Part shown: piece after piece, positions 7,561 to 57,805 of the stretch
How the letters are laid out: the number at the start of each line of letters is the position of its first letter
Position numbering within the stretch: the first letter of the stretch is position 1
Assembly (NCBI GenBank): GCA_963575745.1
Contig: CAUYUJ010000226.1
Coordinates: forward strand, 62,001-126,000
DNA length: 64,000 bases
Origin: Prorocentrum cordatum
Lineage: Eukaryota
Direction: 5' to 3'
The notes under the pieces: model-generated
Database searches by the model: none
Seen by the model: the letters and a program-made list of their open reading frames with translations, nothing else
What the model was told of the DNA's origin: nothing
Position numbers and translations under genes: made by a program

Positions 7561-8489
7561 TGTGCGGCTTCCGATGTCGCTCATGTTGTCTGCCGCGTCC
7601 CGTCGTGCCTGCCTTCTGGGGGGGCAACTTTGGTGGCCTCGGGGGGCCCCCCCCCCGGAGCCTTCTTCGGGGCCCCTGGCGTGGGCGCTGTGGGGGGGCC
7701 CTCCGAGGGCGTCTTTGGCGGCCTCTTGTGGGCAGCTTGGGGGCATGCTGGGCTCAAGTCGGGCCTGCCCCTCTGCACGAGGAATATTCAAAAGTAGTCC
7801 AAAAGTAGCCTGGGGACGATTTCTTGTGTATTTTTGATGGCCATGTTGTATCTGTGTTGCATTTTGGTGTATTTTTTTTCTCACTAGTTTGTATGCGCTT
7901 CGTCCAGAATCCCCCTGCAGGCGGACAGGCGCGACTGAATGCTGGGCGTCTTCGGGGCCATGCGCGGGGGCAGGGCCCCCCGGGGGCCGCCTGCCACCTG
8001 AGCGCTCGAGGACGCGCGCGGGCCGACGCGGTGCATCCTCGAACGCGCAGGCCAGCGTTTGCGTTTCAGCTGCGGCCGCATGTCCTTTTGCCCTGCATGT
8101 ACAATTCGAGCAACTTCGCCATCGCCTCGAACGACCAACTGCGAGCTCCTCCCTGCGGGGGGCCTCTCCGGCCTCCTGGGCAGCCTCTGGGGCCCGCTCT
8201 CCGGGGGCCCCCTCCGGGCCAGGCTGGGAGGCCTCTCGGGCCGCCCGTGGGGGCTCAGGGCACCGCGGTGGCGACCGCCATCGAGGACGCCCACGGCGAA
8301 ATGCCGCCGCCTCCTGCCTTGTGGAGTCGCCGATGCGGCCGAGCGTTGTGGCAAGCGCTCCGCCACGCTATCGGACCACGCGTTCCCCCAGCCGTTGTGG
8401 AAGCCCGTCGGGCAACACTTTGGGGAGAGGGCGGGGAAGATCAGGAGGAGGAGGGGGGGAGCAGGCGCAGCAGGAGGAGGAGGAGGAGG

Positions 8490-8999
8490 CTTCTTGGGAG
8501 CCTCGGGCTCTCTTGGGGTCTCCTGGGAGCTTCCTGGGAGCCTCGGGCATTTTGGGGCCTCCTTGGCCCGTCTGACGCCGTCGGGAGCCGTCTTGAGGGC
8601 CTCTCTTGGCCAACTTGGGGCCCTCTCGAGGTGCTCAAGGCCCTCTTGGAGGCCATTATGGGCGGAGGCCGGTTGTCTTGGCCCGTGTTGGGGCCATCCT
8701 GGAGTCCTTTTGGGCGATCTTGGGGCGATTTTTTGGGGCTCTTGGGCCGTCTCGGGCCGTTGGAAGGCCGACAGGAAGCACATGCCAAATTCCTATAACA
8801 ACGAAAGGAAATGCAACGATTTTAGTCTCTTAGGCCGTCTTGGGCTATCTTGGAGCCATCTTGGGCCGTCTTGGTGGGCTCCTGGCATGTCTGACGCCGT
8901 TGGGAGCCTCCTTGGGTGCCTCTCTGGGCCGACTTGGGGCTCTCTTGGGGTGCTGCAGGGCCTTCTTAGATGCCACTTTGGGCGTCTTGGAGGCCTCTT
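8490..8999. repeat. Degenerate GGCCTCTT/GGCCGTCTT satellite, resuming at 16085-16340
   Basis: Repeated 10-11-mers either side of the Copia insertion. Confidence 0.75.
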
Positions 9000-9157
9000 T
9001 GCTGGGAAGTTTGTAGTTTTACATATATATGTGATTATAGAGAATATAATCAGACTGTCCTGGAGGATCCAGGAAATCCTGCAGCCCTTTGTTGCTCGAG
9101 GAAAAGAGCGACCCTCACCTCCCCCCTTTCTCCGCGAGGGGGGTGGGTGCGCGTGCA
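9000..9157 (+). repeat. 5' LTR (158 bp)
   Basis: TGCTGGGAAG...GCGCGTGCA, identical by eye to 15927-16084. Confidence 0.97.
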
Positions 9158-9169
9158 TGGTAGCGGAGC
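9158..9169 (+). promoter_or_regulatory. Primer binding site, probably initiator tRNA-Met
   Basis: TGGTAGCGGAGC directly after the LTR; resembles the TGGTAGCAGAG/TGGTATCAGAGC iMet-type PBS. Confidence 0.8.
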
Positions 9170-9177
9170 TCGCTTGA

Positions 9178-11049
9178 GGTTCGCGGGCCGCTCCGCACCC
9201 CAGCGAGCTCCAGGAGCCCCTCGAGAGGGCCCAGCGGCGCGACGCCGCGGGTCCGGCAGCCAGCGGGACGATCCACGCGGCTGCCGAACGAAGTACCCCT
9301 TGCTGGTCAGAGCTGCGGTCAGACCCGCGCTCTGACAGCGGAGGCCAGCCAGCCAACAAGGGCAAGGGCAAGGCCACGCTGAAGGCCAAGAAGCCGAATA
9401 AGCGAGGAGGCAGAGCGGCGGACACGCGTGAGCACCGCCAGCTCCGAGGGACCGCCTTTAGGAAGCTTGCGGCGTGCGGCAGCAAGGCGAAGCTCACTCA
9501 GGAGGAGCGAGCAGCAGTGAAGAGGCAGCTGGCGAGCGACATCGAGAGGCTGGAGAAGCGTGTCGTTGACGTGCTCGACGCCGACCAAGATGGAGCAGCA
9601 GCTGCAGCAACTGGTCGATCAAGTTCAGAGACTGACGACGGAGAGTCAGAACATGAGGCAGGAGCTTCAGAACAGGGACGTGCAGATCGCAGAGATGAGA
9701 GGACAACTGCAGGGTCAGCAGCAGGCTCAGCAGCAGGCTCAGCAGCAGCGGGTAGCCCCGCGCGGCGAGATGATGGATCCGAAGATCCTTCACAAGGTGA
9801 AGCCGTTCGACGGCCAAAGGTCAAGCTGGAAGACGTTCAGCTTCCAGTACAGAGCGTACCTGATCGCCCAGGATCGGAGGTACCGAGATCTTCTGGAAAG
9901 GTGCGAGGACGGAGCCCAGGAGGTGGACAACGTCAACCTGGACCCGCAGGAGGAAGAACTCAGCACGCAGTTGTACTACGGCCTGGTCCTGGCCATGCCC
10001 GAGGACTCGGTGGGCGAGCTGATCGTGAGGAACAGCCCAGTAGGAGAAGGAGCCGAGTGTTGGAGGAAGCTTCAGAAGGAGTACAACCCGAGCGAGGCAG
10101 GCAACGTACTGGCGATGTGGACCAAGCTCACGGACACGAAGTTCGACGCCAAGGAAGACGTGATGGTGAGCATCAGCAAGCTGGACGAGGACATGGCGAG
10201 GTACCAGAAGATGGCAGGAGAGCCCGTCTCGGACCTGATCAAGCGCGGCATCCTCACAAAGGCGCTGAAGGATCACGACGAGCTCCAGAAGCACGTGTTT
10301 CGGAACAGCAGTCGGTTAAGTACGTACGAGCTTCTGAGAGCCGAGGTGGTGTCGGCGTTGGCGGCAGAGCGAGCGGTCCAGGACGACCCGATGGAGATCG
10401 GAGCGCTGAAGGGCGGAAAGAGACCGTGGAAAGGCCGCGGCAAAGGGAAAGACGGCAAAGGCAAGGAGAAGCCACCGAATCCCGACGCCGAGATCGAGTG
10501 CCACTACTGCCACAAGAAGGGTCACCGCAGCGCAAACTGCCGAAAGCGGATCGCCGACGAGAAGAAGACACCCGAGAAGGACAAGAAGGACAAGAAGCAG
10601 TTCCGAAAAGAGAAGGCAAAAGAAAAGAAGAAGATCGGGGCAGCGGCAGTCAGGGAGCTCGAAAGGTTACGACAGACAGGAGTGGGCACAGGATCAAGCT
10701 CGACAGCACCGACACAACAGATGCTAGGAAGTCAGGGAAGCGCCGACAGCGCGATGACTCAGCAGGTGCTGCGCCCAGTCAACTGTGCGCTGCGAGCGAA
10801 GATGATTCTGGCCCTGAGGGCAGAGGTCACAAGAAGCGCAGCCACACGATCGACTGGAAGTACTGCTTGCCTAGCTACTACCAATATGTATGCTGCTCTT
10901 GCAAGAAGACCTTTGAAGGATGGCGATGGCACTACGATCAGTGGAAGTTGGACTACTGTGCCGTGTGTGCCGAGTACTGCCTGGACGGCCTCAAGGACGG
11001 GGAAGAGCCAGACGACGACAAGAAGCCAAAGAAGCGCAAGAAAGGCTAG
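9178..11049 (+). CDS. Putative overlapping -1 frame ORF across leader and gag, ending in ZZ-like Cys motif and basic tail
   Basis: 623 stop-free codons with no internal ATG; protein-like ends (KLTQEERAAVKRQLASDIERLEKRVVDVL; CCSCKKTFEGWRWHYDQWKLDYCAVC...KKPKKRKKG). Confidence 0.5.
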   Translation, partial: GSRAAPHPSELQEPLERAQRRDAAGPAASGTIHAAAERSTPCWSELRSDPRSDSGGQPANKGKGKATLKAKKPNKRGGRAADTREHRQLRGTAFRKLAACGSKAKLTQEERAAVKRQLASDIERLEKRVVDVLDADQDGAAAAATGRSSSETDDGESEHEAGASEQGRADRRDERTTAGSAAGSAAGSAAAGSPARRDDGSEDPSQGEAVRRPKVKLEDVQLPVQSVPDRPGSEVPRSSGKVRGRSPGGGQRQPGPAGGRTQHAVVLRPGPGHARGLGGRADREEQPSRRRSRVLEEASEGVQPERGRQRTGDVDQAHGHEVRRQGRRDGEHQQAGRGHGEVPEDGRRARLGPDQARHPHKGAEGSRRAPEARVSEQQSVKYVRASESRGGVGVGGRASGPGRPDGDRSAEGRKETVERPRQRERRQRQGEATESRRRDRVPLLPQEGSPQRKLPKADRRREEDTREGQEGQEAVPKREGKRKEEDRGSGSQGARKVTTDRSGHRIKLDSTDTTDARKSGKRRQRDDSAGAAPSQLCAASEDDSGPEGRGHKKRSHTIDWKYCLPSYYQYVCCSCKKTFEGWRWHYDQWKLDYCAVCAEYCLDGLKDGEEPDDDKKPKKRKKG

Positions 11050-14000
11050 ATTCGTCGCTGACGACCGTCAGTGCTGCGATATGCCAGCTGCGGTGAGCCC
11101 CGCGCTGGCCGGCCCCAGGCCTGTTACCATCGCTGGTCTTCGGCCCGTGGATGAAGATCAGAGCCCTGCGGATGACCGATTGCGGTTAGCCCCGCTTCGG
11201 AATGCGATCATGCTCGATTCAGGTGCGCAGATCAGTGCGATACCGAGGTCACAGGTGACCAAGCACAACTACACGCCGACGGACAGCAACGTTGTCGGCT
11301 TGAAGGGCATAGGAGGCGAGGAGATCGAGAGGTACGGCCACGTGGAGCTGAACCTATCCCGAGGAGGAGAGGTTATTCAAGTCGGTGCTGAGGTTGCCGA
11401 TGTGGAGTACCCAGTTGTGGCTACAGACGCTGTAGTACAACGTGGTCAGAGTGTTCTTCATAGCCCTGCAGGTCACTGGATCATCAACGGTACCATCGAG
11501 CCACCTGACGGAGCTGAGTTCGTACCTCTACGTCGTCACCAAGGCAACTACTACTTAGAGTACGATCACATCATCGACGGCCAGACTCAACCAGAAGCTT
11601 CAAAGGTAGCTGCGGTACGAAAGACACTACCAAGGAAGGTACCAGCTGAACAGGAAGCTGGAGCTTTGCCGAAGGTTCTAGGTCCCGAAGCTGATGAGAC
11701 CACAACTGTGCCAACGAGAGTGTTGAAGACTCCTCACCAACCTAGTGCTGCGGAGAGAGCCGCGCACGAAGGGCATCATCTACCTTTTCGGCCTTGGTGT
11801 CCCATCTGCGTGCAGGCTCGAGCAGACGATGACCCCCACCACGCTCAGGAACCAGCTGATGAGAACAAGATCCCGAAGGTGGTGTTCGACATCTTTTACG
11901 TAGGGACAGACCAGCTGGCTGCGAAGTACAAGCTTAAAGGAGGTTACTTCAGCATCAGGGAGAAGACATCGGTCACGAAGGCCGAGTTAGACCAAGCGGT
12001 CTCTGTCTTGAATGTTATCGACTGTAAGATCTTGGCTCAGGCGACGTTGTACGCGAACAAGGAGACGGATGACTACAAGGTGTCCTTCCTGCTAGGCGTG
12101 CTGGAAGCTTGGGGTCACACAACAGTCATACTTCAGACAGACCAGGAGCCTGCCACCATGGCTCTGGCGCAGGCAGTTCGAGATCGCAGATCACACTCAA
12201 CCTTGGTGCGGGGATCACCGCCCTTTTCCAAGCAGAGTGCAGGCTACGCTGAAGGAGGTAACAAGCTAGCTGCTGGTCTACTTCGAGCCTACAAGCTGAA
12301 GCTGGAGCACAAGCTGGGCAGCGAGATCAAGATGACGGATCCGATCGTGCCATGGCTTGTGAACTCAGTGGGGTGGATGATCACCAGATTCCAGCCTCGC
12401 AGTCACGGAGGTTCCTCCTACAAGATGCTCTACGGCAAAGAGTACAACGGCGAGATTGCGGAGATGGGTGAGCAGGTCTGGTATCGGATCTCAGCCCGAG
12501 TTGCCGCGGGACGTGGCAAATGGGAAGCCCGCTTCGCAAAAGGAATCTGGGTTGGTAAGAGCGAGCTGGACGACACACATCTCGTGATCGATCCTGAACG
12601 TGGAGTGCAGAAGGTGAGAACGGTGCGAAGGATGCCTGAGGAGTTCAGGTGGCAGCCCGAGCTCATCCAGCACATCAGGGTGACGCCCTGGAAGCAGACG
12701 CCCGACAAGAGTTCAGGAACGATCGGACGCAGCATGTACATCACGGAGCGCATGATCGATGCTCATGGTCCTACCGACGATTGCAGGAAGTGCAGTACAG
12801 GATACGGTTCGCATTCGGCAGCCTGCCGACAGCGTTTCGAGACCATTCAGGCCGACTTGCTGCGCGAGAAGTTGGCGAAGGACCCTGTGGCCCCTGAGGC
12901 TACAGTCGTGGTGCCAGCGCCGGCTGCGGGAAGCCCCGCGCCTGGAGCCGCACCCGGAGGAGCAGCGGCATCAAGAAGCAGTGAGGTTGCGGTGAGCCCC
13001 GCACCTGCTGCCAGTGACGTAGCTATGGTTCCTGGCCCAGGAGAGGCTGAGGTGCAGACAGCCATGGACACGGAGAGTGGAGAGCTCAGGAGCGACTTTC
13101 GGCGAAGTGCCCCAGGTGAAGTTCGTGAAGGAGCTGAGGTCAAGAAGCCCAGGGTAGCAAGCATTGGGCATCTCTCTGTCTGTGAGTTGGCAGTCTGCGA
13201 GGAGGGCTACGACGAGAGCTTCGACCCCATGTGGGATCCACACCCAAAGCGCAGTGCGAGATGTTCCGAGAGGTGTGAGAAGCACTCATCACGATGCCAG
13301 CTACGAGAATGCCACCAAGCTGAGTGTGCATGCAGGAGATGTTTGATGAGCCACATCGGCACAATCAGGAGCCACTTCGGAGATCCTGAGGAGCAGCAGG
13401 TGGAGCAGATGGTTGAGGTGAGCGCCGAGCTGCATGAGAAAGACCAGTGGAGCCCAAAGACGATACACTACGATTACTACACTGGAGAGCCTCTGGATGA
13501 GGACCTGTATCAGAAGGGTCGCGACGACGAGCTGCAGGCCATGAAGGACTACGGGGTCTACGTGGAAGTGGCGACATCGACGGCGACCGACGGCAAGCAC
13601 ATTGGAGGTTTCCCGATAGCCCACATGAAAGAAGGAAAGGTCAGGTGGAGGTTCGTAGCAACCGAGGTGAACAAGTACGAGGTCAGGGAGGACAACCACC
13701 AAGGCACGCCCCCGCTCATGATTGTCAGAGCGACGCTGAGCCGTGCCGCTTCAAGTCCAACTTCCAGCGGGCAGCACCTGCGGAAGATACAAGTCTGGGA
13801 CGTCAGGAAGGCTTTCTTCAACGCTGACTTAGACGAGACGATCTACGTGCATCCTGGGAGAGAGCTGTGTCCGCCTGGAAGGTGCTGGTGGTTACGCAAG
13901 GCCATGAACGGTACCAGGAAGGCGTCGCAGATGTGGGGTGAGCTTGTGAGAACTACTATGGACGACGGCCATTGGGAATGCTTGGTTGGAACTCCTAACG

Positions 14001-15715
14001 TGTTCTACTTACCTGCTAGCCCCAACACAGCCCCCTTCGACGAGGATAGCACAGCGATCTGCCATGGCGATGACTTTCTTGCTGAAGGCTACGACGAGCA
14101 GCTGGACGAGCTGGACGAGTTGTTGAAGCAGCAGTTTGAGGTCACGGCCAGCGCCAGACTTGGACCAGGAGCGGTGGGGCAGACTACATACCTCAAGAGG
14201 ACGATCGGCTACACCGACAAGTTGCCAGGTTGCGAGGAGCCAGGTTTCTTCTGGACTGCCGATCCTAAGCATGTGGACTTCATGATCAAGTGGACGCAGA
14301 AGCGAGGTTGTAAACCAGCTCCCACTCCAGGGACGAAAGCTACAGGACAAGGCCGACGAGACAGCCTAGACCTTCTTTCCAAGGATCGTGCTCGAGAAGT
14401 GGCGGGTGCAGCTGGCACCGCTCTTTACCTTTCTTCGGACAGGCCCGACACGATGTACGCCAGCAAGACAGCGATGCAGCACGTCTCCAACCCGAACGTC
14501 TTGATGCATGCGCGTGTTCAGCGACTTGGAAGGTACTACGAAGGACAGCCTGTGTTGGTCTGGTGTTACCCACTTCAAGGTACTCCTGAAGGCATTCGTG
14601 TAGATGGTGACGCAGATTGGGCACCTACGAGTGAACTACAGCGGCGATCTACCAGTGGAGGAGCTGTGAGGTATGGTGACCACACTTGGGACTGCTACTC
14701 AGTGACGCAGAGTACGATAGCCCTAAGTTCAGGGGAATCCGAGATGTACGCTACGGGAAGTGCGACAGCCAGAGGACTTCAGTGTAAGACTTACCTGATC
14801 GAGACCCAGAGGCCCTGCAACCTGAAGATCTATAGTGACAGCACAGCTGGACGTGGCATGTGCAGTCGAGTTGGGGTGGGCAAGGTCAGGCACCTGGAGT
14901 TGAGGTACTTGTGGATTCAGGAGCGGTTGCGTCTCAAGGCGTTCGAGCTGCACAAGGAGGACACCAGCAAGATGACAGCCGACATGCTCACGAAGTACAG
15001 CGAGTGGCCGACAATCGAGAAGCATTGCACCACTCTCAACCTCAGGTTCGGAAAGCAGTTGAAGGGCTTGAGCGCAATGGCAGTTTTCACGGAGGTCGTG
15101 ACGAAGGCGTCAGGCGAGAAGGTGACAGTGTACGGAGGTTCTGACGAGGTTGCGGTTTGCCCCGCGCCTGTCAGCCACTACGTGGACAGCGAGGAGTTCT
15201 GGTTCTTCCTGAAGTTGGGACTAGTTGTGGTGACTGCAGCCAGTGCTTTCTTACTGGGGTGCTGGTGTGGTTGTTACTTCAAGGACTTCTACGACAAGTT
15301 CCTCCTCCAGGGTGCGGTTGACCCCGCCTCTGGAAGCACGTGTATACCATCTGCGCGGGCTGACGTCGAGTTCAAGACCGTGTGTGTACAGCAGGACAAA
15401 GGAGCAAGGCACAAACTCTTAAGCACGTTTCTTGTAGCTGAGCTGCGAGCTGTCTTGAAGGCCAAGAGCCTGGCCGTGTCAGGGATCAAGGAGGACCTGG
15501 TCACGAGGATGATCAAGCACGGATGCGTTCTGTCGGATCGCCAGGCCAAGGAGATCGAGCAGCTGCGAGTGATGGCTACAGCGCGAGGACCTCTTACCAA
15601 GCTCAGCTTGCAGGACATCAGCAGTCCAGAGGCCGCGCAGAAGTGGATCGAGACGTTCAAGAGCGAGTGCGGAGACCGTTCCAGAGGCTCTCAGGTGATC
15701 CACGGAGAGGGCTAG
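9590..15715 (+). CDS. Copia Gag-Pol polyprotein (2041 aa from first ATG) with C-terminal TM + SAP-like extension
   Basis: Zn knuckle CHYCHKKGHRSANC (10499-10540); protease LDSGA (~11213); integrase H..HH.P...WCPIC (11765-11809), FD, TDQEP, YAE; RT WDVRKAFF (~13796), HGDDF (~14063); RNase H DADWA, SSGESE, YSDS, ADMLTK (14600-14995); no stops. Confidence 0.95.
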   Translation: MEQQLQQLVDQVQRLTTESQNMRQELQNRDVQIAEMRGQLQGQQQAQQQAQQQRVAPRGEMMDPKILHKVKPFDGQRSSWKTFSFQYRAYLIAQDRRYRDLLERCEDGAQEVDNVNLDPQEEELSTQLYYGLVLAMPEDSVGELIVRNSPVGEGAECWRKLQKEYNPSEAGNVLAMWTKLTDTKFDAKEDVMVSISKLDEDMARYQKMAGEPVSDLIKRGILTKALKDHDELQKHVFRNSSRLSTYELLRAEVVSALAAERAVQDDPMEIGALKGGKRPWKGRGKGKDGKGKEKPPNPDAEIECHYCHKKGHRSANCRKRIADEKKTPEKDKKDKKQFRKEKAKEKKKIGAAAVRELERLRQTGVGTGSSSTAPTQQMLGSQGSADSAMTQQVLRPVNCALRAKMILALRAEVTRSAATRSTGSTACLATTNMYAALARRPLKDGDGTTISGSWTTVPCVPSTAWTASRTGKSQTTTRSQRSARKARFVADDRQCCDMPAAVSPALAGPRPVTIAGLRPVDEDQSPADDRLRLAPLRNAIMLDSGAQISAIPRSQVTKHNYTPTDSNVVGLKGIGGEEIERYGHVELNLSRGGEVIQVGAEVADVEYPVVATDAVVQRGQSVLHSPAGHWIINGTIEPPDGAEFVPLRRHQGNYYLEYDHIIDGQTQPEASKVAAVRKTLPRKVPAEQEAGALPKVLGPEADETTTVPTRVLKTPHQPSAAERAAHEGHHLPFRPWCPICVQARADDDPHHAQEPADENKIPKVVFDIFYVGTDQLAAKYKLKGGYFSIREKTSVTKAELDQAVSVLNVIDCKILAQATLYANKETDDYKVSFLLGVLEAWGHTTVILQTDQEPATMALAQAVRDRRSHSTLVRGSPPFSKQSAGYAEGGNKLAAGLLRAYKLKLEHKLGSEIKMTDPIVPWLVNSVGWMITRFQPRSHGGSSYKMLYGKEYNGEIAEMGEQVWYRISARVAAGRGKWEARFAKGIWVGKSELDDTHLVIDPERGVQKVRTVRRMPEEFRWQPELIQHIRVTPWKQTPDKSSGTIGRSMYITERMIDAHGPTDDCRKCSTGYGSHSAACRQRFETIQADLLREKLAKDPVAPEATVVVPAPAAGSPAPGAAPGGAAASRSSEVAVSPAPAASDVAMVPGPGEAEVQTAMDTESGELRSDFRRSAPGEVREGAEVKKPRVASIGHLSVCELAVCEEGYDESFDPMWDPHPKRSARCSERCEKHSSRCQLRECHQAECACRRCLMSHIGTIRSHFGDPEEQQVEQMVEVSAELHEKDQWSPKTIHYDYYTGEPLDEDLYQKGRDDELQAMKDYGVYVEVATSTATDGKHIGGFPIAHMKEGKVRWRFVATEVNKYEVREDNHQGTPPLMIVRATLSRAASSPTSSGQHLRKIQVWDVRKAFFNADLDETIYVHPGRELCPPGRCWWLRKAMNGTRKASQMWGELVRTTMDDGHWECLVGTPNVFYLPASPNTAPFDEDSTAICHGDDFLAEGYDEQLDELDELLKQQFEVTASARLGPGAVGQTTYLKRTIGYTDKLPGCEEPGFFWTADPKHVDFMIKWTQKRGCKPAPTPGTKATGQGRRDSLDLLSKDRAREVAGAAGTALYLSSDRPDTMYASKTAMQHVSNPNVLMHARVQRLGRYYEGQPVLVWCYPLQGTPEGIRVDGDADWAPTSELQRRSTSGGAVRYGDHTWDCYSVTQSTIALSSGESEMYATGSATARGLQCKTYLIETQRPCNLKIYSDSTAGRGMCSRVGVGKVRHLELRYLWIQERLRLKAFELHKEDTSKMTADMLTKYSEWPTIEKHCTTLNLRFGKQLKGLSAMAVFTEVVTKASGEKVTVYGGSDEVAVCPAPVSHYVDSEEFWFFLKLGLVVVTAASAFLLGCWCGCYFKDFYDKFLLQGAVDPASGSTCIPSARADVEFKTVCVQQDKGARHKLLSTFLVAELRAVLKAKSLAVSGIKEDLVTRMIKHGCVLSDRQAKEIEQLRVMATARGPLTKLSLQDISSPEAAQKWIETFKSECGDRSRGSQVIHGEG

Positions 15716-15917: not shown

Positions 15918-15926
15918 AAGGAGAGG
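15918..15926 (+). promoter_or_regulatory. Polypurine tract
   Basis: AAGGAGAGG immediately before the 3' LTR. Confidence 0.85.
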
Positions 15927-16084
15927 TGCTGGGAAGTTTGTAGTTTTACATATATATGTGATTATAGAGAATATAATCAGACTGTCCTGGAGGATCCAGG
16001 AAATCCTGCAGCCCTTTGTTGCTCGAGGAAAAGAGCGACCCTCACCTCCCCCCTTTCTCCGCGAGGGGGGTGGGTGCGCGTGCA
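15927..16084 (+). repeat. 3' LTR (158 bp)
   Basis: Identical to the 5' LTR, followed by TSD CTCTT. Confidence 0.97.
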
Positions 16085-16467
16085 CTCTTGGGACGTGTTA
16101 GGGCCCATTCGGGCCCTCTTGAAGGCCTCTTGAACCGTTTTGGGGCCATCCTGAAGGTCTCTTGGGCGATCTTGGGGCGATTTTTGGAGGCTATTGGGCC
16201 GTCTCGGGCCGCCGCAAGCGAAGACAAATCAATGATTTTGGCTTCTTCGGGCCTTCCTGGAGGCCCTCTTGGAGGCCTCTTGGGCCGTCTTGGAAGCCTC
16301 TTCGGGGCCTCTTGGGCCCTCGTTGGCCGTCTGGGAGGTTTCACGAGGCGTCACGGAGACGATGCGTTTTGGCGTCCTCCCCGTGGGGCTTCACCGCTAG
16401 GTGCGCCGCGCAACGTGTCACCCGCCCGCTGAAGGTGCCAGGTTCTCAAATTCTTTACGCTTCGCGT

Positions 16468-28548: not shown

Positions 28549-29514
28549 GGGCCGGGGCCTTCTGAGAAGCAGCCTCCTTCGAAGAGGCCTGCCCTCCTCC
28601 CCCTACCCCCCTCGTGCGAGCCGCCAAGGGTTGGCGGCAGGCCCCAGCTCGAAGGACGAAGGGGTCATCAGAATGATGCGTTCCGAGAGTCAGGGGAGGA
28701 AAATGGTACCCGTGCTGCTATCCTTTGGTGCATTTTCATTTTGGGGGGGCCTTCCGTGAGGCCCTCGTCGCCACCGCTGGATACGCCTCGAGGTCCTGGT
28801 CTGGACGCGCCCCAAGGAGAGGTCTGGGGAGTAGCGATATCGGTACCCTTTGGGTCCCCGATGATTTCGAGGATTTCTGGGACTCCCCGGGTTCTTGGAT
28901 GTTCCGAACGGGGCTGCAAAGACGAGGGCCATGCCATTCGGGGAATCCTGGAATTGCGCATCCTGAGCCAACATTGTCAGGAGAGATTCCCCTCCTACCA
29001 ACTCCCTTGTACCATTTTCGCACAGCGCGACGAGAGGGTACATGGGAGTGCCGAAATGGGAGGGAGCTCGCGTGGAACTCCCTAATTATGTGGCAAGATC
29101 TGCGTTCTGGGTGTTCGAAATTGGGCGGTCGGCCCGCGTGCGATCCCGCCCACTGGGGCCGCAGGTGGGGAACTCAGTGGAGGCGCGATCAGTGGAGAAT
29201 TCTGAGATGGGGTGCGAACCGCGCTGCAGGAACGCCCCCGGTGGGGACGCAGGTGGAACTCCGTCCACTCAGGACCTCGCCGAAACCTCAAGAGTATTCC
29301 GCCTCCTCCCCCTCGGGCTCCTCAACCTCGACCAGGGTGAGGAGGAGGACGAGAAGAAGAAGAAGAAGACGAAGAAGAATAAGAAAAAGGAAGAGGGGGA
29401 GGAGGACGAGGGCGAGGAGGAGGAGGAGAAGGACGAGGACGAGGACTGAGAGGAGAGAGGAGGAGGAGGAGGAGGAGGAGGAGGAGGAGGAAGGAGAGGA
29501 GGGGACGACGACGA

Positions 29515-29560
<46 letters not shown>

Positions 29561-29620
29561 GAGGACGAGGACGAGGACGAGGACGAGGAGGAGGACGAGG
29601 AGGAGGGCGATGGTGGGCAG

Positions 29621-29716
29621 ATTGGCGCCACCCTGCTGCTGCTCACCCAGTGGCTGGCGCTCTCCTGCCCGCCCCTGATGGGCCTGCTGTGCTACAGCAG
29701 CCTGCCGAGCCTCCAG
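29621..29716 (+). CDS. Exon D of EamA/DMT transporter
   Basis: CAG acceptor; IGATLLLLTQWLALSCPPLMGLLCYSSLPSLQ (32 codons, high GC3); CAG|GC donor. Confidence 0.75.
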
Positions 29717-29756
29717 GCTGGGCGGGGAAGCGCCTCCTGTCGGCGGGCACGGGCCC

Positions 29757-30580
29757 CCCTCCTCCTCTTCCTCCTCCTCCGCCTCATCCTCCTCCCTCCT
29801 CCTCCTGCTCGTTCCTCCTCCTCCTCCTCCTCCTCCTCCCTCCTCCTCCTCCTCCCTCCCTCCTCCTTCCCGTCCTCCCCCTCCTTCTCCCCCCTTCCCC
29901 TATCCTCCTCCTCCTCCTCCTCCGCCTCCTCTCCTCTCCTCCTCCTCCTCTTCCTCCTCCTCCGCCTCCCTCCTCCTCCTTCCCTCCCTCCCTCTCCTCC
30001 CCCTCCCCCTCTCCTCCTCCCCCTCGCCCCCTCCCCCTCATCCTCCTCCTCCTCCTCCTCCTCCTCCTTCCTCCTTCTCCTCCTCCTCTCCTCTCTCCTC
30101 CTCCTCCTCCCCTCCCCCCTTCTCCTCCCCTCCACCTGCTCCTTCCCCGCCTCCTCCCCCTCCCCTCCTCCTCCTCCGCCCTCCTCCTCTCGCCTCCCCT
30201 CATCCTCCTTCCATCCTCCTCCTCCTTCCCTCCTCCCCCTCCTCCCCCTCCCCCGCTCCACTCTCCCCTCCCCTCTCCCCCCTCCCCTTTTCCTCCTCTC
30301 CTCCTACTCCAACTCCTCCTCCTCCTCCTCCCGCCGCTCCTCCTCCTCCCTCACTCCTCCTCCTACTCCTCCTCCTCCTCCTCCTCCTCCTCCCCCTCCG
30401 TCCTTCCCCGCCGCCTTCCCCTCTCATCCTCTGCCATCCTCCTACTCCTCCTCCTCTCCTCCTTCACCTCCGCCTCCTCCTCCCTCCCCTCCCCCTCTCA
30501 CTCCCCCTCCCCCTCTTCCCCCCCCCCTCTCTCGCCGCCTCCTCCTCCTCCTCCTCCTCCTCCTTCTACTCTTCCTCCCC
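29757..30580. repeat. (CCT)n/(GGA)n low-complexity tract, representative of many (e.g. 420-835, 6005-6370, 32385-32915, 39810-40690, 55150-55640)
   Basis: Direct inspection; source of the poly-P/E/R/L/S ORFs. Confidence 0.95.
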
Positions 30581-33500
30581 ATGCTCTCAGAACATGCCGT
30601 GCAAACCCCAAACATCTCTCGGAGCCTCCGCCCATGAGCGGGGAAGCCCATCCCGGCGGCGGGTTCCCCAACATATTTATACTCCCCCGTGCGAACCGAG
30701 AAATATTATGGTATATGCGTCGTGGCGGGCGCTTTCTGGCCACACCGCTCGGGGAACGATACACTACATGGTGGGTATACTATATGTTCGGCTTGAACGC
30801 GCGCCTCCACGGAAGACATACAGTATCGGTCTGTCTCTGTGCGTCCCATCCCGGTGGCGGGCACGGGCCCAGGCCTCCCACCGCGTGTCGCCTTACCTTC
30901 CGTCGGGCGTGCCTCCCTGAACGAGGAAGATTCAAAATTAGCAAAAAAATGCTCAGGGGGATATTGTTGGAGCATTTGTTTAACCATTGTTGAGCACTGT
31001 TTGCGTATTTTTTGATGTTTCGTCCACAATCCGCCTGTAGGGGGACATGCCCGACCGAACCCTTCCCTGAGGAGGCTCCCACCTGCTTCTGCAGGAAGCC
31101 CGTGCGCGCGGGCCCCTCTACGGCCGGGCGTCCTCCAGGCCACCCAGGTGCGCCCCGGGGTTGCCAAGGCAATGCCAAGGCAATGCCGAGCCATGCAGCG
31201 CCAGGCCATGCAAAGCTGATGCCAAGCGTCGCCTCGCAATGCCGGGTAGCGCCAAGCAGCGCCAAGCACTGGCCTGCGGCACCAGGCAATGCTAAGCACA
31301 CGCCTATAGGACCATCCCTCGGGTGAATCGGAGGTTTGGGGGGAGGGGAACATGCTGACGACAGTTGCGATGAATATGATGGTGTCGATGCCGGCGACGA
31401 TGCATGGTAACGATGCGTGTGGACGCCATCGGGACACCAGGTGGGCACCATCGGAACCCCAGCGGCACACCACGTGGACACCATCGGAACACCATCGGAA
31501 CACCATCGGTACACCATCAGGACACCATCAGAACACCATCGGGACACCATCGGGACACCCCCGAGGCCACCGCCAGTCAATTGGGGCCACCGCCAGCCAA
31601 CCTGGCGGAGAATCATGTGGCCCGGTTTTGCCCCAGCAACGGAGAGTTCTGTCCTTTCGCCCGTCCATGTAGCCTCGCCTCGCCCGCCCGCTCGCACGAC
31701 ACGAAGCCGAAACCAATTTCCCAGTTCGGGGCCTCCGTTTCGTGTCGATGTTGGCCCCCCAACCTCCGATTCCAGGCAATGCAGAGTAATGCCAAGCAGT
31801 GCCATGTAACTATTGGGTAAGCAACGCCAAGCCACGCAAAGCTCTACCAAGCAGCGAGAGGCAGTGCCAAGCAACACGGAGCAATGCGCACACAAATGCC
31901 AAGCAACGATTCTAGGCAATGCCAAGCGCTCAAGCGCTTAGAAGAAAGAGGGTCCCTAACTGGGTTCGTGCCGGGCTCATTTTCAAGCCCGGACCTATTT
32001 TTTTCGATTTCGGGTTCTGGCGGCCCCCGTTGTTCTATCAAAAGGGATCCGTCTTCGGATGTCAGAAAGAGCGCATTTCTGTGGTCGCTTGGAGGGGGGG
32101 GGTTGGAACAGGACCCCCCCCTCCCCCCCCTGGATGGAGGGGGGGGTTCGAACGTGACGGACGTCAGCGCACCTCCAGCGCCGCAGAAGACACAGTTTTA
32201 CCTCCGCCGCGGCGAGCGGTGCCGGGCTCCGGGGGCCCGCAACGAGAGAAGTGTCGCGCGGCGCAGAGCTCGTCCCGGGGGTCGGTGTCGAGGGCCGCCT
32301 CCCGGGGTGCCGCCTCCCGGGCCCTCTGCGGAAGCCGGGAGGGTGCCCAGCTGCGTTGGAGAGGCGGCGTGGGGAGGCGGCGGGGTGAGGAGGAGGAGGG
32401 GACGAGGAGGAGGAGGAGGAGGAGGAGGAGGAGGAGGAGGAGGAGGAGGGGAGGAGGAAGAGGAGGGAGGAGGAGGAGGAAGGAGGAGGAGGAAGGAGGA
32501 GGGGTGAGGAGGAGTGAGGAGGAGGAAGGCGGAGGAGGAGGGAGGAGAGATAGGAGGAGGAGTGAGGAGGAGGAGGAGGAGGGAGGAGGAGGGGAGGATG
32601 AGGAGGAGGAGGAGGGGGAGGAGGAGGAGGAGAAGGAGGGGGAGGAGGAGGAGGAGGAGGAGGAGGAGAAGGAGGAGGGAAGGAGGATGAGGAGGAGGAG
32701 GAGGAGGAGGGGTGAGGAAGATGGGTGATGATGAGGAGGAGGAGGAGGACGAGGAGGCGGAGGAGGAGGAGGAGGAGGAGGAGGGGAGGAGGAGGAGGAG
32801 GAGGGAGGAGGAGGAGGAGAGGAGGAGGAGGAGGAGGAGGCGGAGGAGGAGGAGGAGGAGGAGGAGGAGGAGAGGAGGAGGAGGAGGAGGAGGAGGAGGA
32901 GGAGGAGGAGGGGATGGACAGGAAGGGAGAGGCGGGACTCGGGCCAGCCGTTCACTGTGCACCAGGCATGGTTGAGAGGCGGGCCGGTTGGGGATCAGCG
33001 CGCGAGCCAGGCCGCCGATCGGCCCGACTCGCCCGAGCCAGTCTGCCGGCGGACAAGAGCAACGCCAAGCAGTGCCGAGCAGCGTCAGACAAAGGCAGCA
33101 GTGCCGAGCAGTGCCCCGCAGTGGCGAGCAACGCAAGCAAACACGCCCTTCAGTGCCGAGCAACGCCAAGACAGGGCCGACTGCCGCGTACAATCATGGG
33201 TGTATGATCGCTGAAGGCGCACTGACTGTGAACCGGACTTGAGGGGGAGCGAGAAGCCGCGTAAGTGCAATCGGTGTGTCAAGGCTCAAGCAGTATCTTT
33301 ACGTAGTTTGGGGTGCAGTCTCAGTTCGATTCGTGTCGCAATTCAGTCATCGTCTGCTACTGTTCGGGCGTATCCCAACGCCGCAAGGTAGTGTAGTTTC
33401 TTCTGAGCTGTGGAAGGTAGCTTAGGATGGTATAAGGTTTGTCTTTCAGACGCAACGGGACGGAGGCTTACATCACGTGGTGGGCAAGAGCAAGAAAAGC

Positions 33501-45213: not shown

Positions 45214-45376
45214 TCAGGAGGGGAAGAAACACACAGACACAAGTAATCGTCGAGTGCCAGGAAAATATAGGAAAATATGGGAATTGGGCGGGACGACAAA
45301 AATCCAGAAAATATCGGAAAATATGGGGAATCATTTTATTTGTGTGTATTTATTTGTGTGTCCCAGGGCCCCTTCA
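45214..45376 (+). mobile_element. Family A element
   Basis: Same ends; TSD GTTGG. Confidence 0.85.
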
Positions 45377-45739
45377 GTTGGGTGGAGGGGAGGTGTGAAA
45401 GGGCCATGCTTTTGCCACTGCCGGGCGCCCGTTTGCGATGGTAAGCTTTGGAGGAGGCGGAGGACAAGGAGGAGTGATAGAGAGGATGGACGAGGAAGAG
45501 GCGCGAGCGGACGGAGCGGATGAACGAGGGGCATGTGGAGGGCAGGGACGAGGCAGGGTCAGTGGAGAGGATGACGAGGAGGAGGGGGATGAGTGGCAAG
45601 AGGAGGATGATGAGTCATAGGAGGCGGAATTCGCTGGAATTTGTTGGACATGTGGAAGACGGGGAGAAATATTGATGGGAAGAGGAGCGGGGAACGGATG
45701 GGGGCAATGATATGGGGATGGTAAAGGAGGCGGGTATTT

Positions 45740-46850
45740 GTGTTGTTGATGATGATAGTGATGCTGATGGTGATGATGATTTTGGTGGTGACGGTGATGT
45801 TGATGGTGATGGTTACAGCGATGATGATGATAATGTTTGTGGTGGTAGAGGTGTTGGTGGCAGTGGTGGTACTGTTGGTGGCGATGATGTGTTCTGGTCG
45901 AGGTCAAGATCTTACAACGGATATTGAAGAGAACGAGGATGATGGTTATGATAATGAGGTGGTTGATGTTGGTAAGAACGATACTCAGAGTGATAGTGAT
46001 TATGATCATGATGACGGCAATGATGATGATGACGATTATGATGATGTTGATGTTGATGATGATGGTAGTGATGTTGAGGATGATGATGTCGGTGATAATG
46101 ATGACGACGGCTACGATGGCGGTGACCATGACGATCCTTACGATACTGACGGTACTGACGGTGGCTGTGATGTCGACGATGATGATGATGACGGTTATGA
46201 TGATGGTGGTGACGATAAAAATAATGATGATGATAATGACGTTGATGTTGAGTATGATGATAATCAATGTTGTGTTGATTATGGTGATGTTGAAGATGGT
46301 GTTGGTGTTGCTGATGGTGACACCGACGATGCCGATGATGATGCTGATTATGATGGTGGCGGCGATGATGATTGTAATGACGATGATGCTGATACTGGTG
46401 ATGGTGATGCTGACGGTGGTGATGTTGATGATGTTGATGATGATGTTGATGATGGTGATTCTGATGATGAGGAGGTTGGTGTTGATGATGCTGATGCTGT
46501 TTTGTTTATGATGCTGCTGATGATGCTGATGATGATGACGATGATGATGTTGGTGACGATGATGGTGATGATGATGATGATGGTGGTGATGAAGATGATG
46601 ATGCGAATGATGATGATGACGATGACGATGACGATGATGATGATGATGGATGATGGGTGATGGATGATGATGATGATGATGATGGTGGTGATGATGATGA
46701 TGATGATGATGATGCGGATGCGGATGTGGATGCGGATGATGATGATGCTGATGATGATGATGTTGTTGTTGTTGTTGTTGTTGTTGATGATGATGATGAT
46801 TCCGATGATAATGCTGTCGACGGTAATGATGGTGATCATGACGATGATGA
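45740..46850. repeat. Degenerate (GAT)n tract (another at ~20220-20700)
   Basis: Direct inspection. Confidence 0.9.
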
Positions 46851-48682
46851 GGGTGTTGTGGAGTTCTCGGAGGAGGAAGCGGAGGTGGAAGCGGAGGAGG
46901 AAGAGGATGAGGAAGCCGATTTTCGGAATTCCACGCGGATTTCCCAAAGTTTGTGCGTTTGAGCGGGTTCTTCTTCTTGTAGGGATGGAGTCGATAGCCC
47001 AGGGTCCGATGTCGCGCGAAAAAAACAACGACGTCGCGTTCTCGGGAAGGACGGGGTCCTCCCCCCCCTTCTCGATTCCTGTCGGGCGGTGCTGGGACAA
47101 GGATTACTCCGTTGCAGAGCGTTCCAGAACGCTCTCCGAGCGTCCTGGACCGCTCTGGCAAGGGCCGCGGCGCCCGAGACATCCTCCAGAGGCGCCGGAT
47201 CGCAGAGATTCCCGATTTTTCCTCGCCCGATGTTGTCTTCGTGCCGGCTTCGTGGTATCCTGGGCTACTGGGGCCGCCCTGGTCGTCGTGGCTCGACGCG
47301 TGCCCGCAGGCGTGCCAGGTGCCACTGGAGGGGTCGTCGGGCCAGATCTCTCCGTGGACTCTGGTGGCGGGGAGGGGCAAGGGCGGAGAGGAGGAGTCGG
47401 TGGTTCAAAGGTGGGGTCCTGAGGGATGGGGTCCTGAGGACGAGGTGCCCCAAACAGCGTGAAGCCTCCCTCAAATCCCTTTCTATCCTCGGGCCCCGTC
47501 CCTTAGGATCCCATCTTTGGACCACCGCGGGAGGGCGGAGGGAGTCGTCATCAGGAGGGGCGGAGGAGGGTGGAGCGCGGAGAGAGACGGCCACGCGCAG
47601 GGGGGAGGTAGGGGGAGGGGGGAGGCTCCGTAGAAGCTCCCCTGCTTCATAAAGGCGCGGGCCTTGTCTGTAGATTCGGGGTCCGCGCCTCTGAGAAGCA
47701 GCCTCCTAGGAAGCCTTCCTCCCTCTCCCTGCCCCTTTGCGCGCGCCACCAATGGAGAGGAGGGAGGAGGGGATCCTGGCCTCCCAGATGGTGTCGGGGC
47801 AGACGAGGTCGGAGGATCGCGCCGCACCGCCGATGCCTCGGCGATGCGGCTCGATGTGGAGCCCGGCTTTCGCCACGCCGACGGCGCCGATGCATCGGGA
47901 ATGCGGCGTGGTTCTCCGGCCCCATCTACTCGGACCCCATCCAGGGCGTTTCTAGGGGAAGGGTGACAGGGTGGCACAGAGCGCGTTCCACTACTCGCCA
48001 AGTGCCTACTCGCAAACGTCCGAGCAAAACACACATGTCTGCATCGATGTTGTGTATCTTAAACCCTCGATGGTGGATCCAATAGTGGAACGCGCTTGTC
48101 TGGTATCCTTTTGAAGCGCTCATGGGGTTTCTTCGGCGCATGCTGGGCCGTCTTGGGGCCATCTTGGGCGTCTTGGAGCGCCCTTGGACTGCCCTGGAGG
48201 CCTCTTGGGCGTTTCATGGGGCCCTCCTGGCCTGCCTCGGGGCTTTGTGGCCTCAGGAGAATCCTTCGACGTCGTCCAGGACCCCAGGCAGGGCTCGTTG
48301 CGATTCCTCCGATTCGATCCGATTCGATTTCGATGGGTTCCGATTCCGATTCCGTTGGACTTGGGATTCCGATTTGGGTTCCGATTTCTCGTCGGAGGGC
48401 TACTAGCCTGCCGATTTCCACCGATTCGACTTTTTCCGACTTGGCTGCCGATTTCCGCCGATCCGATTCATTTCGATCGCCGATTCGACTTGCCGATTCG
48501 ATGCTGGGCTCTCCTGCCCCAGGAGTATCCTTCGATGTCGTCCTCTCCCCGCTTCGCCCAGCCGGGTCTCTCCGTCCCTGCCCTTCCCTGCGCCCTCCCT
48601 GCCCCCGCGCCCACGTTCCCCGCCCACCCTGCTTCCCCTCCTCGCACCATCCCCTTCCGCCGCCCCAGAGATCCAACTTATT

Positions 48683-48827
48683 TGATGGGCCTGGTTTCCA
48701 CCACCACCACCATAAGTTGGAGGGGGAGGGGGTCCTCCTCCTCCTCCTCCACCTCCTCCTCCTCCTCCTCATCCTCCTCCTTCCCCCCTCCAGCTTACGG
48801 TGGTGGTGGTGGAAAACAGGCCCATCA
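48683..48827. mobile_element. Family B MITE
   Basis: Same TIRs; TSD TTATT. Confidence 0.9.
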
Positions 48828-49570
48828 TTATTGAAAAAGTCAGGACGGAGGTTTTTCGCAGATATCGGCCCCCAGGGGCCCTCGCCGGGCCCCTGGGGGC
48901 CGATATCAAGGAGGAGGAGAAGGGGGGAGGAGGAGCAAGAGAAGGAGGAAGAGGAGGAGGAGGAGAAATGGAAAAGGGAGAGAAGGGGGAGGAGGAGGAA
49001 GAGGATGGAGCAGGCGTGGACGACGAAAACGATGGAGGAGGAGCAGGGAAAGATGTCTGAGAGAGGTTGGAGACGGCATCAGATGGGTCGCAGGGCGTTC
49101 CTACACGGCTCAATAGCTAGGGGTCTCGAAAGCCGGGGAAGTGAACGAAGCCCCTGGTGGCCCTGGTGGACCCTCGCCCGCTCCCCGGGACTCTCCCCCG
49201 GGAGAGAATCAAGCGTATCTGATCCGCGGGCCGCCGCCTGCTGTTCCGGGGCGACTCCGGGACGTGGCCCGGGAGCCCTCCCCCTCCCTGGCGGGAAAGA
49301 GAAGAAAAGGAAAAGAGGCTCCCTTCCCGAATTCGAAGCTGAGAGGTTGGATCCTCGATCGACCCGAGGGGGCGGCGTATCTGACCGTCTGACCCGGGTT
49401 TTCGCCAGCGGCTCTCCCCGGGACCTCCCCGGGACTTTCCCGCGGGAGGGCAGCGTATTTGAGCCGGGTCCCCTTTCCGGGAACACCCCGGGGCGTCGCC
49501 TGGGGACCTCCTCCCGTCCTGGCGGGAAAGAGAAGAAAAGGAATCTTTGGAGTCAATGGCGTCATTGCTC

Positions 49571-50268
49571 CGCCGGGAGGGCGGCGTATGTGACCCAGGA
49601 CCCCCCCCCGCTACCCCCCCCGGGACCCCCCCCGGGACCCCCCCCTTTGGCGGGAAAGGGATGAAAGGGAAGGGGCGTCCCCTTGACTCAGAGGCGACGT
49701 TGTTCCGTTTCGGTTTGCACCGACACGCTTCAGGAACAAGGTTTTGAAAAGGTTTCAGGACAGGAGAGAATACGACGGGCGCAGTGGAAAAGAAGGCTGT
49801 AGGGAAGGGACAGAAGCGACGCCGGGAGGGCGGCGTATGTGACCCAGGACCCCCTCCGCTACCCCCCCGGGGACCCCCCCTGGGACCCCCCCCCCTGGCG
49901 GGGAACGGGAGAAAGGGAAGGGGCTTCCCTTTGACTCAGAGGCGACGTTGTTCCGTTTCGGTTTGTACCGACACGCTTCAGGAAAAGGTTTTAGGACAGG
50001 AGAGAAAGCGATGGGCGCAGTGGATGAGAAGGCTGTAGGGAAGGGACAGAAGCGACGCCGGGAGGGCGGCGTATCTGATCCAGGACCCCCCCCGAGACCC
50101 CCCCCCCTGGCGGGGAAGGGAAGAAAGGGAAGGGGCTTCCCTTTGACTCAGAGGCGACGTTGTTCCGTTTCGGTTTGTACCGACACGCTTCAGGAAAAGG
50201 TTTTAGGACAGGAGAGAAAGCGACGGGCGCACTGGAGGAGAAGGCTGTAGGGAAGGGGCAGAAGCGAC
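49571..50268. repeat. Three tandem units of ~210-250 bp
   Basis: Units start CGCCGGGAGGGCGGCGTAT at 49571, 49820, 50056. Confidence 0.9.
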
Positions 50269-56093: not shown

Positions 56094-56458
56094 CTCGGGG
56101 GGGAAACAAATTCCCACCGACACACCGACGATTCCCCGGGAAATATGGGGACCTACGGGGGACATGGGGGGGAAGACGAAGAGCTAGAAATCATGTGACA
56201 ATGTGGGGAGTATTGACTTGTTAGCTTTATTTGTCTTTAACACATACATGTACGTATTTACATACACATATGTACACATATCTATACACATGTACATACC
56301 TACATATATGCATACCTATGCACATGCAGTAAGACATACTACCTGGGTACATGCATACCTACATACATATGTACATTTGTATACACACATTATATATACA
56401 TGTATTCTTACATATGCATGTATATATATATATATATATGTGTCCCTGGGCCCCTTCA
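56094..56458 (+). mobile_element. Degenerate family A element with internal (TACA/TA)n expansion
   Basis: GATTCCCCGGGAAATATGGG body; right end GTGTCCCTGGGCCCCTTCA; left boundary approximate. Confidence 0.6.
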
Positions 56459-57620: not shown

Positions 57621-57805
57621 AAGCTTTTGGGCGACGCAATCTATACATATCCACTGCTCCCTGGCCAGGCCCATCCTGAACCCAGGAGCTGTGTATGCGC
57701 CCTCCTGGCCAAGCCAGGAGGGCGTGGCGTATACACAGCTGCTGTGTTCAGGATGGGCCTGGCCAGGGAGCAGTGGATATGTATAGATTGCGTCGCCCTA
57801 AGCTT
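57621..57805. repeat. Near-perfect palindrome (foldback element)
   Basis: GGGCGACGCAATCTATACATATCCACTGCTCCC ... GGGAGCAGTGGATATGTATAGATTGCGTCGCCC. Confidence 0.85.

Follow-up and report, generated by a model that had tools for sequence, protein, structure and literature searches.

A candidate accessory gene overprinted on the leader and gag of a Ty1/copia-like element in the dinoflagellate Prorocentrum cordatum

We analyzed a window of 64,000 nucleotides from the dinoflagellate Prorocentrum cordatum (contig CAUYUJ010000226.1, positions 62,001 to 126,000), in which an intact and very young Ty1/copia-like retrotransposon insertion carries two long reading frames over the same DNA; that the insertion is intact and young follows from its identical 158-bp long terminal repeats (LTRs) and its 5-bp target-site duplication. 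One of the two is the gag-pol frame (hereafter f0), and the other, one base behind it in the −1 register (f2), is free of stop codons across the apparent 5′ leader and all of gag. We lean toward the view, from sequence comparison, that f2 is a real accessory gene overprinted on leader and gag. An earlier note on this DNA had proposed exactly such a dual-coded accessory gene; our results lend that proposal support without proving it, through coding signatures at both ends of f2, the conservation of these ends, and the recurrence of the open frame in a distantly related element (P0071; P numbers denote related predicted proteins).

The open frame in f2 spans 9178–11046, between a TGA (9175–9177) at the end of the stretch resembling a primer-binding site (PBS) and a closing TAG (11047–11049). 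The earlier note had described 623 stop-free codons from just after the PBS to just before the protease, which are indeed present, but it had named a TGA at 11059 as the closing stop, and that TGA (11059–11061) comes next in the frame after the TAG. Within gag, f0 and f2 contain no stop (the closing TAG excluded), and the third frame, f1, contains 23; in pol, f1 contains 66 and f2 contains 58. The conserved part of f2 probably begins near 9313–9391. Comparison of copies drew on 40 shown of 1099 differences, a number too small for a rate test; among these, none of the 18 differences within 9590–11049 creates a stop in f0 or f2. Around the f2 stop (11029–11070), a variant copy in sequencing runs X1, X2, and X3 displays small indels that total multiples of three, its loose end appears to have a sense codon at the window’s TAG with another stop soon after, and P0034 has a Tyr at the position where P0026 stops. 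The exact end of f2 thus seems to drift by a few codons among copies.

The openness of f2 exceeds what is expected from synonymous shuffles of gag. When we shuffled synonymous codons within gag while keeping the protein and the codon usage, a check that the earlier note had proposed, f2 acquired 13.9 stops on average and stayed open in 0 of 20,000 shuffles. It likewise stayed open in 0 of 20,000 upon shuffling of the codon order, and in 0 of 20,000 when the gag codons were redrawn from pol usage (mean of 24.7 f2 stops), while shuffling inside 50-codon blocks, which keeps the local composition, left it open once in 20,000. Taken separately, the core (9590–10789) remained open in 1 and the tail (10790–11047) in 36 of 20,000 shuffles. 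That pol is also short of f2 stops (58 versus a shuffle mean of 83) points to a general junction bias of ~0.74, and correction by this ratio brings the probability to ~7e-4 in the core and to ~4e-3 in the tail.

The sharp switch in codon usage between gag and pol that the earlier note had pointed out is real: T occupies a share of 0.099 of the third positions in gag and 0.189 of those in pol, and T-purine junctions are rare in the gag core. There, 2 of the 24 T-ending codons stand ahead of a purine-starting codon, compared to 259 of the 375 other codons (Fisher 3e-9), whereas the corresponding counts in pol are 172 of 293 and 813 of 1261. Of the T-ending codons ahead of a purine-starting codon, 0 of 20 make a stop, compared to 165 of 307 for other codons (Fisher 4e-7). 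Of the 486 gag codons, 101 are a single synonymous step away from an f2 stop.

Some of our findings weigh against an f2 gene; those that concern openness are given here, and those that concern the middle of the frame, its start, and its relatives follow below with the alternatives on which they bear. The open frame could be a compositional accident, the product of a purine-rich, T-poor gag with many G and C at third codon positions in a GC-rich genome. T makes up only 12% of the stretch, and pol shows its own deficit of f2 stops. Across the 64-kb window, 42 frames run for at least 300 codons with no stop, no Pfam family was found in any of the eight that were tested, and several of them are improbable too under dinucleotide shuffles (1e-4 to 4e-6). 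Examples are found at 29383–30993, where all three forward frames are open at once, 45374–47404 (reverse strand), 48063–49664, and 56241–58109; these long frames may represent genes not yet recognised, decayed elements, or repeats. The leader taken alone is not significant, as 548 of 5000 dinucleotide shuffles leave f2 open. Given the 42 long frames, frame length and shuffle P-values alone are unconvincing. The accident, however, sits poorly with the shuffles that keep Gag, its codon usage, and its local composition, with the 23 stops in f1 of the same stretch, and, as described in the following, with f2 periodicity and protein conservation at both ends and with an end-to-end open frame in a diverged subfamily. 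We consider it very unlikely.

The GC content at the three codon positions divides f2 into three parts, with an f2 coding pattern in the leader and in the tail and an f0 coding pattern in the core between them (Table 1). A scan with pol codon usage gave a matching picture: f2 scored best in 9170–9589 and in most windows of 10610–10969, and f0 scored best in all windows but one of 9590–10609. Periodicity and codon usage together indicate that the frame under selection switches twice along the stretch. The suggestion that both ends of f2 look like real protein is thus borne out by f2 codon periodicity and by conservation at the protein level.

The tail of f2 encodes a Cys-rich domain, which the earlier note had noticed as a C-terminal Cys cluster and which we find in relatives as a conserved CxxC...CxxC domain that ends in a Lys-rich stretch. 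Its motif IDWK-CLP...C-x-S-C-[KR]-K-x-F-E-G-x-[RK]-W-H...W-x-L-D-x-C-x-x-C-A-x-x-C-L-D occurs in P0002, P0003, P0012, P0025, and P0069 as well as in P. cordatum gene models, and all Cys, Trp, and His positions are retained in the intact relatives of the tail alignment. These relatives stop 4 to 25 residues past the domain, four of five on a basic, mostly Lys-rich tail. Across 10849–11010, f2 is better conserved than f0, with f2 identities of 42/54 (P0069 and P0003) and 31/46 (P0002) versus f0 identities of 28/48 (P0024) and 23/53 (P0022). In the core, this order is reversed, and the f0 identity amounts to 102/108 and 96/108.

The class of the domain is less clear-cut. Pfam returned Zn_ribbon_8 below threshold in three of four proteins (E of 7e-4 to 0.036) and no match to ZZ (PF00569). 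A PDB profile search placed ZZ fingers at the top, none of them significant (ZZZ3 at E of 0.084 and 0.09, p300 at E of 3). In the printed alignment, the ZZ finger of ZZZ3 and the f2 domain have the order CxxC ... G-x-R-W-H ... L-D-x-C-x-x-C in common, with the first and third Cys pairs present, but where ZZZ3 has its second Cys pair the f2 domain has a four-residue gap, and the second zinc site is missing. The nearest ESM Atlas clusters carry C1_2, zf-KKT2_KKT3, and ZZ (score of 0.90, which serves as a lead only), and the AlphaFold 2 (AF2) model is too poor for a comparison of folds (predicted local distance difference test, pLDDT, of 51.8). We therefore describe the domain as zinc-finger-like, possibly a one-site derivative of a ZZ finger, and do not class it as a ZZ domain.

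At the other end of the frame, the basic and helical N-terminal segment that the earlier note had seen corresponds to a conserved basic domain with two helices in its AF2 model (pLDDT of 71.4; long helices at residues 25–49 and 54–85). The alignment of this leader domain contains seven invariant columns (A, R, K, L, L, D, and R) in 10 sequences. A BLASTP search with the 83-residue leader peptide matched 11 of 12 relatives, with identities of 31–39% in a distant subfamily. The domain has no recognisable relatives, and the best ESM Atlas score of 0.79 offered no lead. P0015, an open reading frame (ORF) that matches the part from PBS to leader at window positions 9178–9423, stems from a EukProt transcriptome labelled as the green alga Pyramimonas sp.; either this transcriptome is contaminated by a dinoflagellate or the family occurs in a wider range of hosts. 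As it comes from a transcriptome, the PBS-to-leader region is transcribed somewhere.

Searches with the entire f2 product extended the set of relatives. HMMER against 1.84 billion representative proteins gave 21 matches at E ≤ 1e-3, of which 11 were at E ≤ 1e-10; one of the 21, P0017, is a repetitive protein whose kinship we doubt. A word-indexed protein search returned nothing for the f2 product and only P0005 for the f2 alignment, probably because low-complexity words filled the candidate list, and Pfam gave no family for the whole product. No related loci were found by a search with the Gag alignment in metagenome, genome, or viral contig collections.

Among the relatives, the distant subfamily is the most informative. 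Its Gags (e.g., P0026 and P0029) are ~50–55% identical to the window’s Gag. On a 30.5-kb contig, P0071 forms one uninterrupted f2-type ORF of 532 residues that spans the LTR, the PBS, the leader domain, and the entire gag overlap. It matches the window’s f2 over 9367–10692 with 34% identity (E of 4e-67), and f0 is unmatched. It ends just ahead of the protease, at the same place as P0026; P0069, one of the relatives with the Cys motif, has 245 f2 codons up to the same end. In P0071, a third-position T meets a purine at least 10 times, seen as Tyr, Cys, or Trp in the protein, and never forms a stop, which has a probability of ~1e-3 to 6e-3 when based on the share of stop-forming codons in that subfamily’s Gag. 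As far as these predicted proteins go, the openness of f2 recurs in a subfamily with ~50% Gag identity.

The distant subfamily also bears on the origin of the tail. It lacks an insert of ~90 residues between the f0 motif A-L-[RQ]-A-[KR]-M-I and the protease, and it is this insert that carries the Cys domain in the window’s clade. The Cys domain was thus added in the phase of f2, at a time when this frame already ran open from the leader up to the protease. The f0 motif itself, in full A-L-[RQ]-A-[KR]-M-I-[LF]-A (10790–10830), is kept in all subfamilies, even amid an unconserved f0 linker, and may be a processing site between Gag and protease; it forces the f2 residues A-S-E-D-D.

The middle of f2 behaves differently from its ends. 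T-first codons are nearly absent from it except those for Ser. Among the 16 best-supported core differences between copies within the 40 shown, 13 alter the f2 residue and 6 alter the f0 residue. Identity to the distant subfamily in the middle is 40–43% for f2 and 43–59% for f0, and we estimate, rather than simulate, that such an f2 identity is about what f0 conservation alone would yield. Read in this way, the residues of the f2 middle are under no visible constraint of their own. Furthermore, the f2 proteins of the relatives are the output of automatic ORF and gene callers, to which closed frames are invisible, and several of these proteins mix f0 and f2 pieces.

The start of f2 poses a further difficulty. 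Not one of its 623 codons is an ATG. The only ATGs in 9000–9600 lie at 9029, 9157, and 9590, the last being that of gag. From 9157 up to the gag start, all frames are free of ATG, which would suit leaky scanning. The junction of LTR and PBS creates the ATG at 9157, which is in f2 phase and is followed six codons on by the TGA at 9175–9177. We rejected this ATG as the f2 start for the window copy, because of that TGA and because the leader has another phase in P0004 and P0005. In P0015 and P0071, the equivalent junction ATG is in phase and open to the leader domain. The frame relation between PBS and leader domain thus varies among relatives, and, as the leader was also open in many shuffles, the first 45 to 70 f2 codons may be open by chance. 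The window copy offers no ATG as a usable f2 start, with near-cognate CTG and ACG codons only (such as CTG at 9313 and 9379 and ACG at 9268 and 9376), and the best of these, the CTG at 9379 with an A at −3, is not kept in P. cordatum copies.

In the distant subfamily, the leader domain starts with a Met. Of the four clusters in which this residue is internal to the predicted protein, three have a Met (P0019/P0071, P0033, and P0043), which is therefore a true ATG codon there; the fourth, P0013, has a Val. A Cys codon before and a Pro codon after this ATG put a T at −3 and a C at +4, i.e., a weak context, and the gag ATG at 9590 is in a strong one, with an A at −3 and a G at +4. At the corresponding site, the window has an AAG (9391), and relatives of its own clade read Lys there.

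A serious rival to an overprinted gene is splicing. Here, only the ends of f2 would code, as separate products, and removal of an alternative intron located after the zinc knuckle and before 10848, with a length of 2 mod 3, would lead from gag into the tail. Spliced RNA would then yield a Gag with a zinc-finger C-terminus and unspliced RNA would yield Gag-Pol, in the Copia way of producing excess Gag. As for the leader domain, it would either form a distinct peptide upstream of gag or be joined to the N-terminus of Gag through another small intron, and the open middle would be incidental. The f0-type periodicity and the lack of own residue conservation in the middle fit this well. Copia elements are documented to shift the frame by splicing at the gag end: BARE1 of barley loses a 104-nt intron there, upon which the frame shifts and a stop follows 3 residues on (PMC3735527), and in Arabidopsis, an alternative splice around the protease that is common to Ty1/Copia elements generates a Gag-only RNA (PMC5580714). 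In P. cordatum itself, gene models link f0 gag to the f2 Cys domain via predicted introns; the model P0025 ends at the f2 stop, and in P0063, P0064, and P0066, another predicted intron leads back to f0. Candidate introns in the right phase run from GT 10666 to AG 10841 (176 nt) and from GA 10605 to AG 10825 (221 nt), the latter of which would correspond to the P. cordatum model junction as deduced from P0063, P0064, and P0066.

The gene models, however, may have introns that are artefacts of following coding potential. The P. cordatum pipeline combines ab initio gene prediction with evidence from transcripts and permits GT, GC, and GA as donors (PMC10666404), the introns differ between copies, and that of the P0001 model would delete the zinc knuckle. 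Given these pipeline rules and copy-specific introns, we take the models as a sign of coding potential and not of splicing. Candidate splice pairs in the right phase are plentiful, with 114 GT/GC-AG pairs of length 2 mod 3. Moreover, splicing would leave ~400 stop-free core codons unexplained (1 in 20,000 shuffles), also in the subfamily of P0071, as well as the insertion of the Cys domain in the phase of the leader domain, and the leader domain would still require a non-AUG start in the window’s clade. We regard splicing as a possible explanation but a distinctly less probable one than an overprinted gene.

The known splice systems (BARE1, EVD and other Arabidopsis Ty1/Copia elements, and Drosophila copia) share with our element the single gag-pol ORF. 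Their alternative frame at the border of gag and protease stops just before or within the protease, as it does here (PMC3735527, PMC5580714). The alternative frame in BARE1 adds 3 residues, whereas here a conserved zinc-finger-like domain of ~55 residues with a basic tail would follow. Unlike BARE1, f2 is open over the whole of gag and the leader and encodes another conserved domain ahead of the gag ATG, and splicing is a candidate only.

A programmed −1 ribosomal frameshift from f0 to f2 after the zinc knuckle would also yield a Gag with the Cys domain as its tail, in the manner of retroviral gag/pol junctions except that a stop terminates the product. The register is right, as f2 is the −1 frame of gag, the tail stops just ahead of the protease, and the predicted proteins P0026 and P0034 switch from f0 to f2 past the basic region. 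Such switches in metagenome-derived proteins could equally be indels in decayed copies or artefacts of the callers. We found no canonical X_XXY_YYZ heptamer in f0 phase in 9590–11059 and no homopolymer of 6 or more, and a frameshift accounts for neither the conserved f2 leader domain nor the open core. We deem such a frameshift very unlikely.

For an overprinted gene, which we favor, the sequence suggests the following course of events. The element would encode a third protein in f2, whose translation would begin in the apparent 5′ leader, upstream of the gag ATG, at a weak non-AUG codon in the window copy and at a poor-context AUG in the distant subfamily. Most scanning ribosomes would bypass this weak start and initiate gag at the strong AUG, that is, by leaky scanning. 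The product would comprise the conserved basic two-helix N-terminal domain (~9391–9588), a low-complexity linker of ~400 residues rich in Arg, Gly, Glu, and Ser over the gag core, the Cys-rich zinc-finger-like domain (10849–11010), inserted in the window’s clade, and a Lys-rich end resembling a nuclear-localisation signal (NLS), with the stop at TAG 11047 ahead of the protease. In the linker, selection would act on the absence of stops only, which agrees with core differences that mostly alter f2 and less often Gag and with the near-absence of T-first codons other than Ser. The protein may serve as a nucleic-acid or nuclear-import helper.

Table 1. Features of the Ty1/copia-like element and of the −1 frame (f2); positions are those of the window.
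Feature	Position	Strand	Basis or remark
Target-site duplication CTCTT	left 8995..8999, right 16085–16089	+	identical 5 bases outside both LTRs
5′ LTR, 158 bp, TG...CA	9000..9157	+	100% identical to 15927–16084
PBS-like stretch beginning TGG	9158..9177	+	directly after 5′ LTR
f2 open frame, 623 sense codons and TAG	9178..11049	+	stop-to-stop ORF list, shuffles, junction tests
Leader	9340–9588		GC at f2 positions 1/2/3 =.67/.48/.80; f2 coding pattern
f2 N-terminal domain: basic stretch, then two predicted helices	9391..9588	+	periodicity, alignment, BLASTP, AF2 model
Core	9589–10788		GC at f2 positions 1/2/3 =.78/.61/.38; f0 coding pattern
Putative f2 linker overprinted on gag core: Arg/Gly/Glu/Ser-rich, low complexity, stop-free	9590..10788	+	shuffles, composition
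gag-pol ORF (f0), 2041 aa from first ATG 9590, stop TAG 15713–15715	9590..15715	+	
Candidate frame-shifting introns (under splicing)	10605..10841	+	right-phase sites, gene models
Tail	10789–11046		GC at f2 positions 1/2/3 =.50/.43/.72; f2 coding pattern
f2 Cys-rich domain, CxxC ... W-H ... CxxC-x3-C, zinc-finger-like	10849..11010	+	alignment, identity, periodicity, profiles
f2 C-terminal tail: acidic, then Lys-rich (NLS-like), and TAG	11011..11049	+	ORF translation
Polypurine tract AAGGAGAGG	15918..15926	+	adjoins 3′ LTR
3′ LTR	15927..16084	+	100% match to 5′ LTR

The host element is Ty1/copia-like (Table 1). Its gag-pol frame runs from stop to stop over 9521..15715, with a CCHC zinc knuckle at 10499–10540 (a motif read in the gag-pol translation). 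Pfam finds in it, all under the curated cut-offs, Retrotran_gag_2 (24.2 bits), Asp_protease_2 (16.8), and RVT_2 (26.2), in Copia order, and gives no match to an integrase in gag-pol. Its close relatives are gene models of P. cordatum, and UniRef names close relatives ‘Pol polyprotein from transposon TNT 1-94’. The gag-pol ORF extends beyond the reverse transcriptase and RNase H with a hydrophobic, membrane-span-like stretch and a SAP-like motif (15434–15508; ~15200–15715). Pfam places SAP at the C-terminus of gag-pol below its cut-off (E of 2.9e-4), and UniRef calls one relative a ‘SAP domain-containing protein’; a SAP-like C-terminal extension is unusual for a Copia Pol.

No second copy of the element lies within the 64-kb window, and the window contains no tRNA gene. 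A comparison with contigs of four sequencing runs of DNA or of unknown kind showed a multi-copy family with many variants, and wherever any of the 12 listed indel rows fall inside ORFs, they fit lengths in multiples of three. Parts of the stretch are listed for 24 sequencing runs, of which the metagenomes are mostly marine; none is of RNA, which has no bearing on expression. The element is surrounded by degenerate short repeats with units of the CTTGGG/GGCC type (8400–8999 and 16085–16400), which are open in several frames on both strands.

Genes overprinted on other genes and reached by leaky scanning or by non-AUG upstream starts are familiar from paramyxovirus P/C and from the glyco-Gag of murine leukaemia virus. 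To these can be added the envelope ORF of hepadnaviruses that is reported to be nested in P (PMC5604429) and the overprinted genes reported for deltaretroviruses (PMC3744397). As we propose for f2, such genes yield two proteins from one stretch of RNA in different frames; the younger frame is of low complexity over a structured domain, and a weak upstream start precedes a strong AUG, as would likewise hold here. In contrast to them, the host here is a dinoflagellate Ty1/copia element, the overlap is the whole of gag (~486 codons), and f2 has no ATG in the window copy. Extra ORFs are also found in LTR retrotransposons, for example the ORF1 that Ogre-type plant Ty3/gypsy elements have upstream of gag and the env-like ORFs of Sireviruses. 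Like f2, they would represent an additional lineage-specific protein besides Gag and Pol, but they sit beside gag and pol, whereas f2 overlies gag in another frame. The common view, to our knowledge, is that Ty1/copia elements code for Gag and Pol alone, and as a rule within one ORF. With overprinted viral genes and extra ORFs of LTR elements already known, f2 would be a variant thereof. Within open-access text, PMC5776459 included, our searches turned up no published ORF that overlaps gag in Copia or dinoflagellate elements.

The pieces of f2 already matter for annotation, as gene predictors join them into chimeric ‘genes’ in the annotation of one dinoflagellate genome. The claim is directly testable, since RNA and proteome data of P. 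cordatum are public (PMC10666404). In its fullest form, to which we would give an even chance, the finding describes a dinoflagellate Ty1/copia lineage with a true third gene of ~470 to 620 codons that combines a weak start in the leader, a disordered linker over gag, and a captured host-like zinc finger with a nuclear-localisation tail, and that is expressed by leaky scanning as an accessory protein in the style of retroviruses. If true, this would add an accessory gene to the Ty1/copia superfamily, the overlap would be among the longest sense overlaps known in eukaryotic mobile elements, and the lineage would show a route by which such a gene grows, from an ORF in the leader through extension over gag to the capture of a zinc finger.

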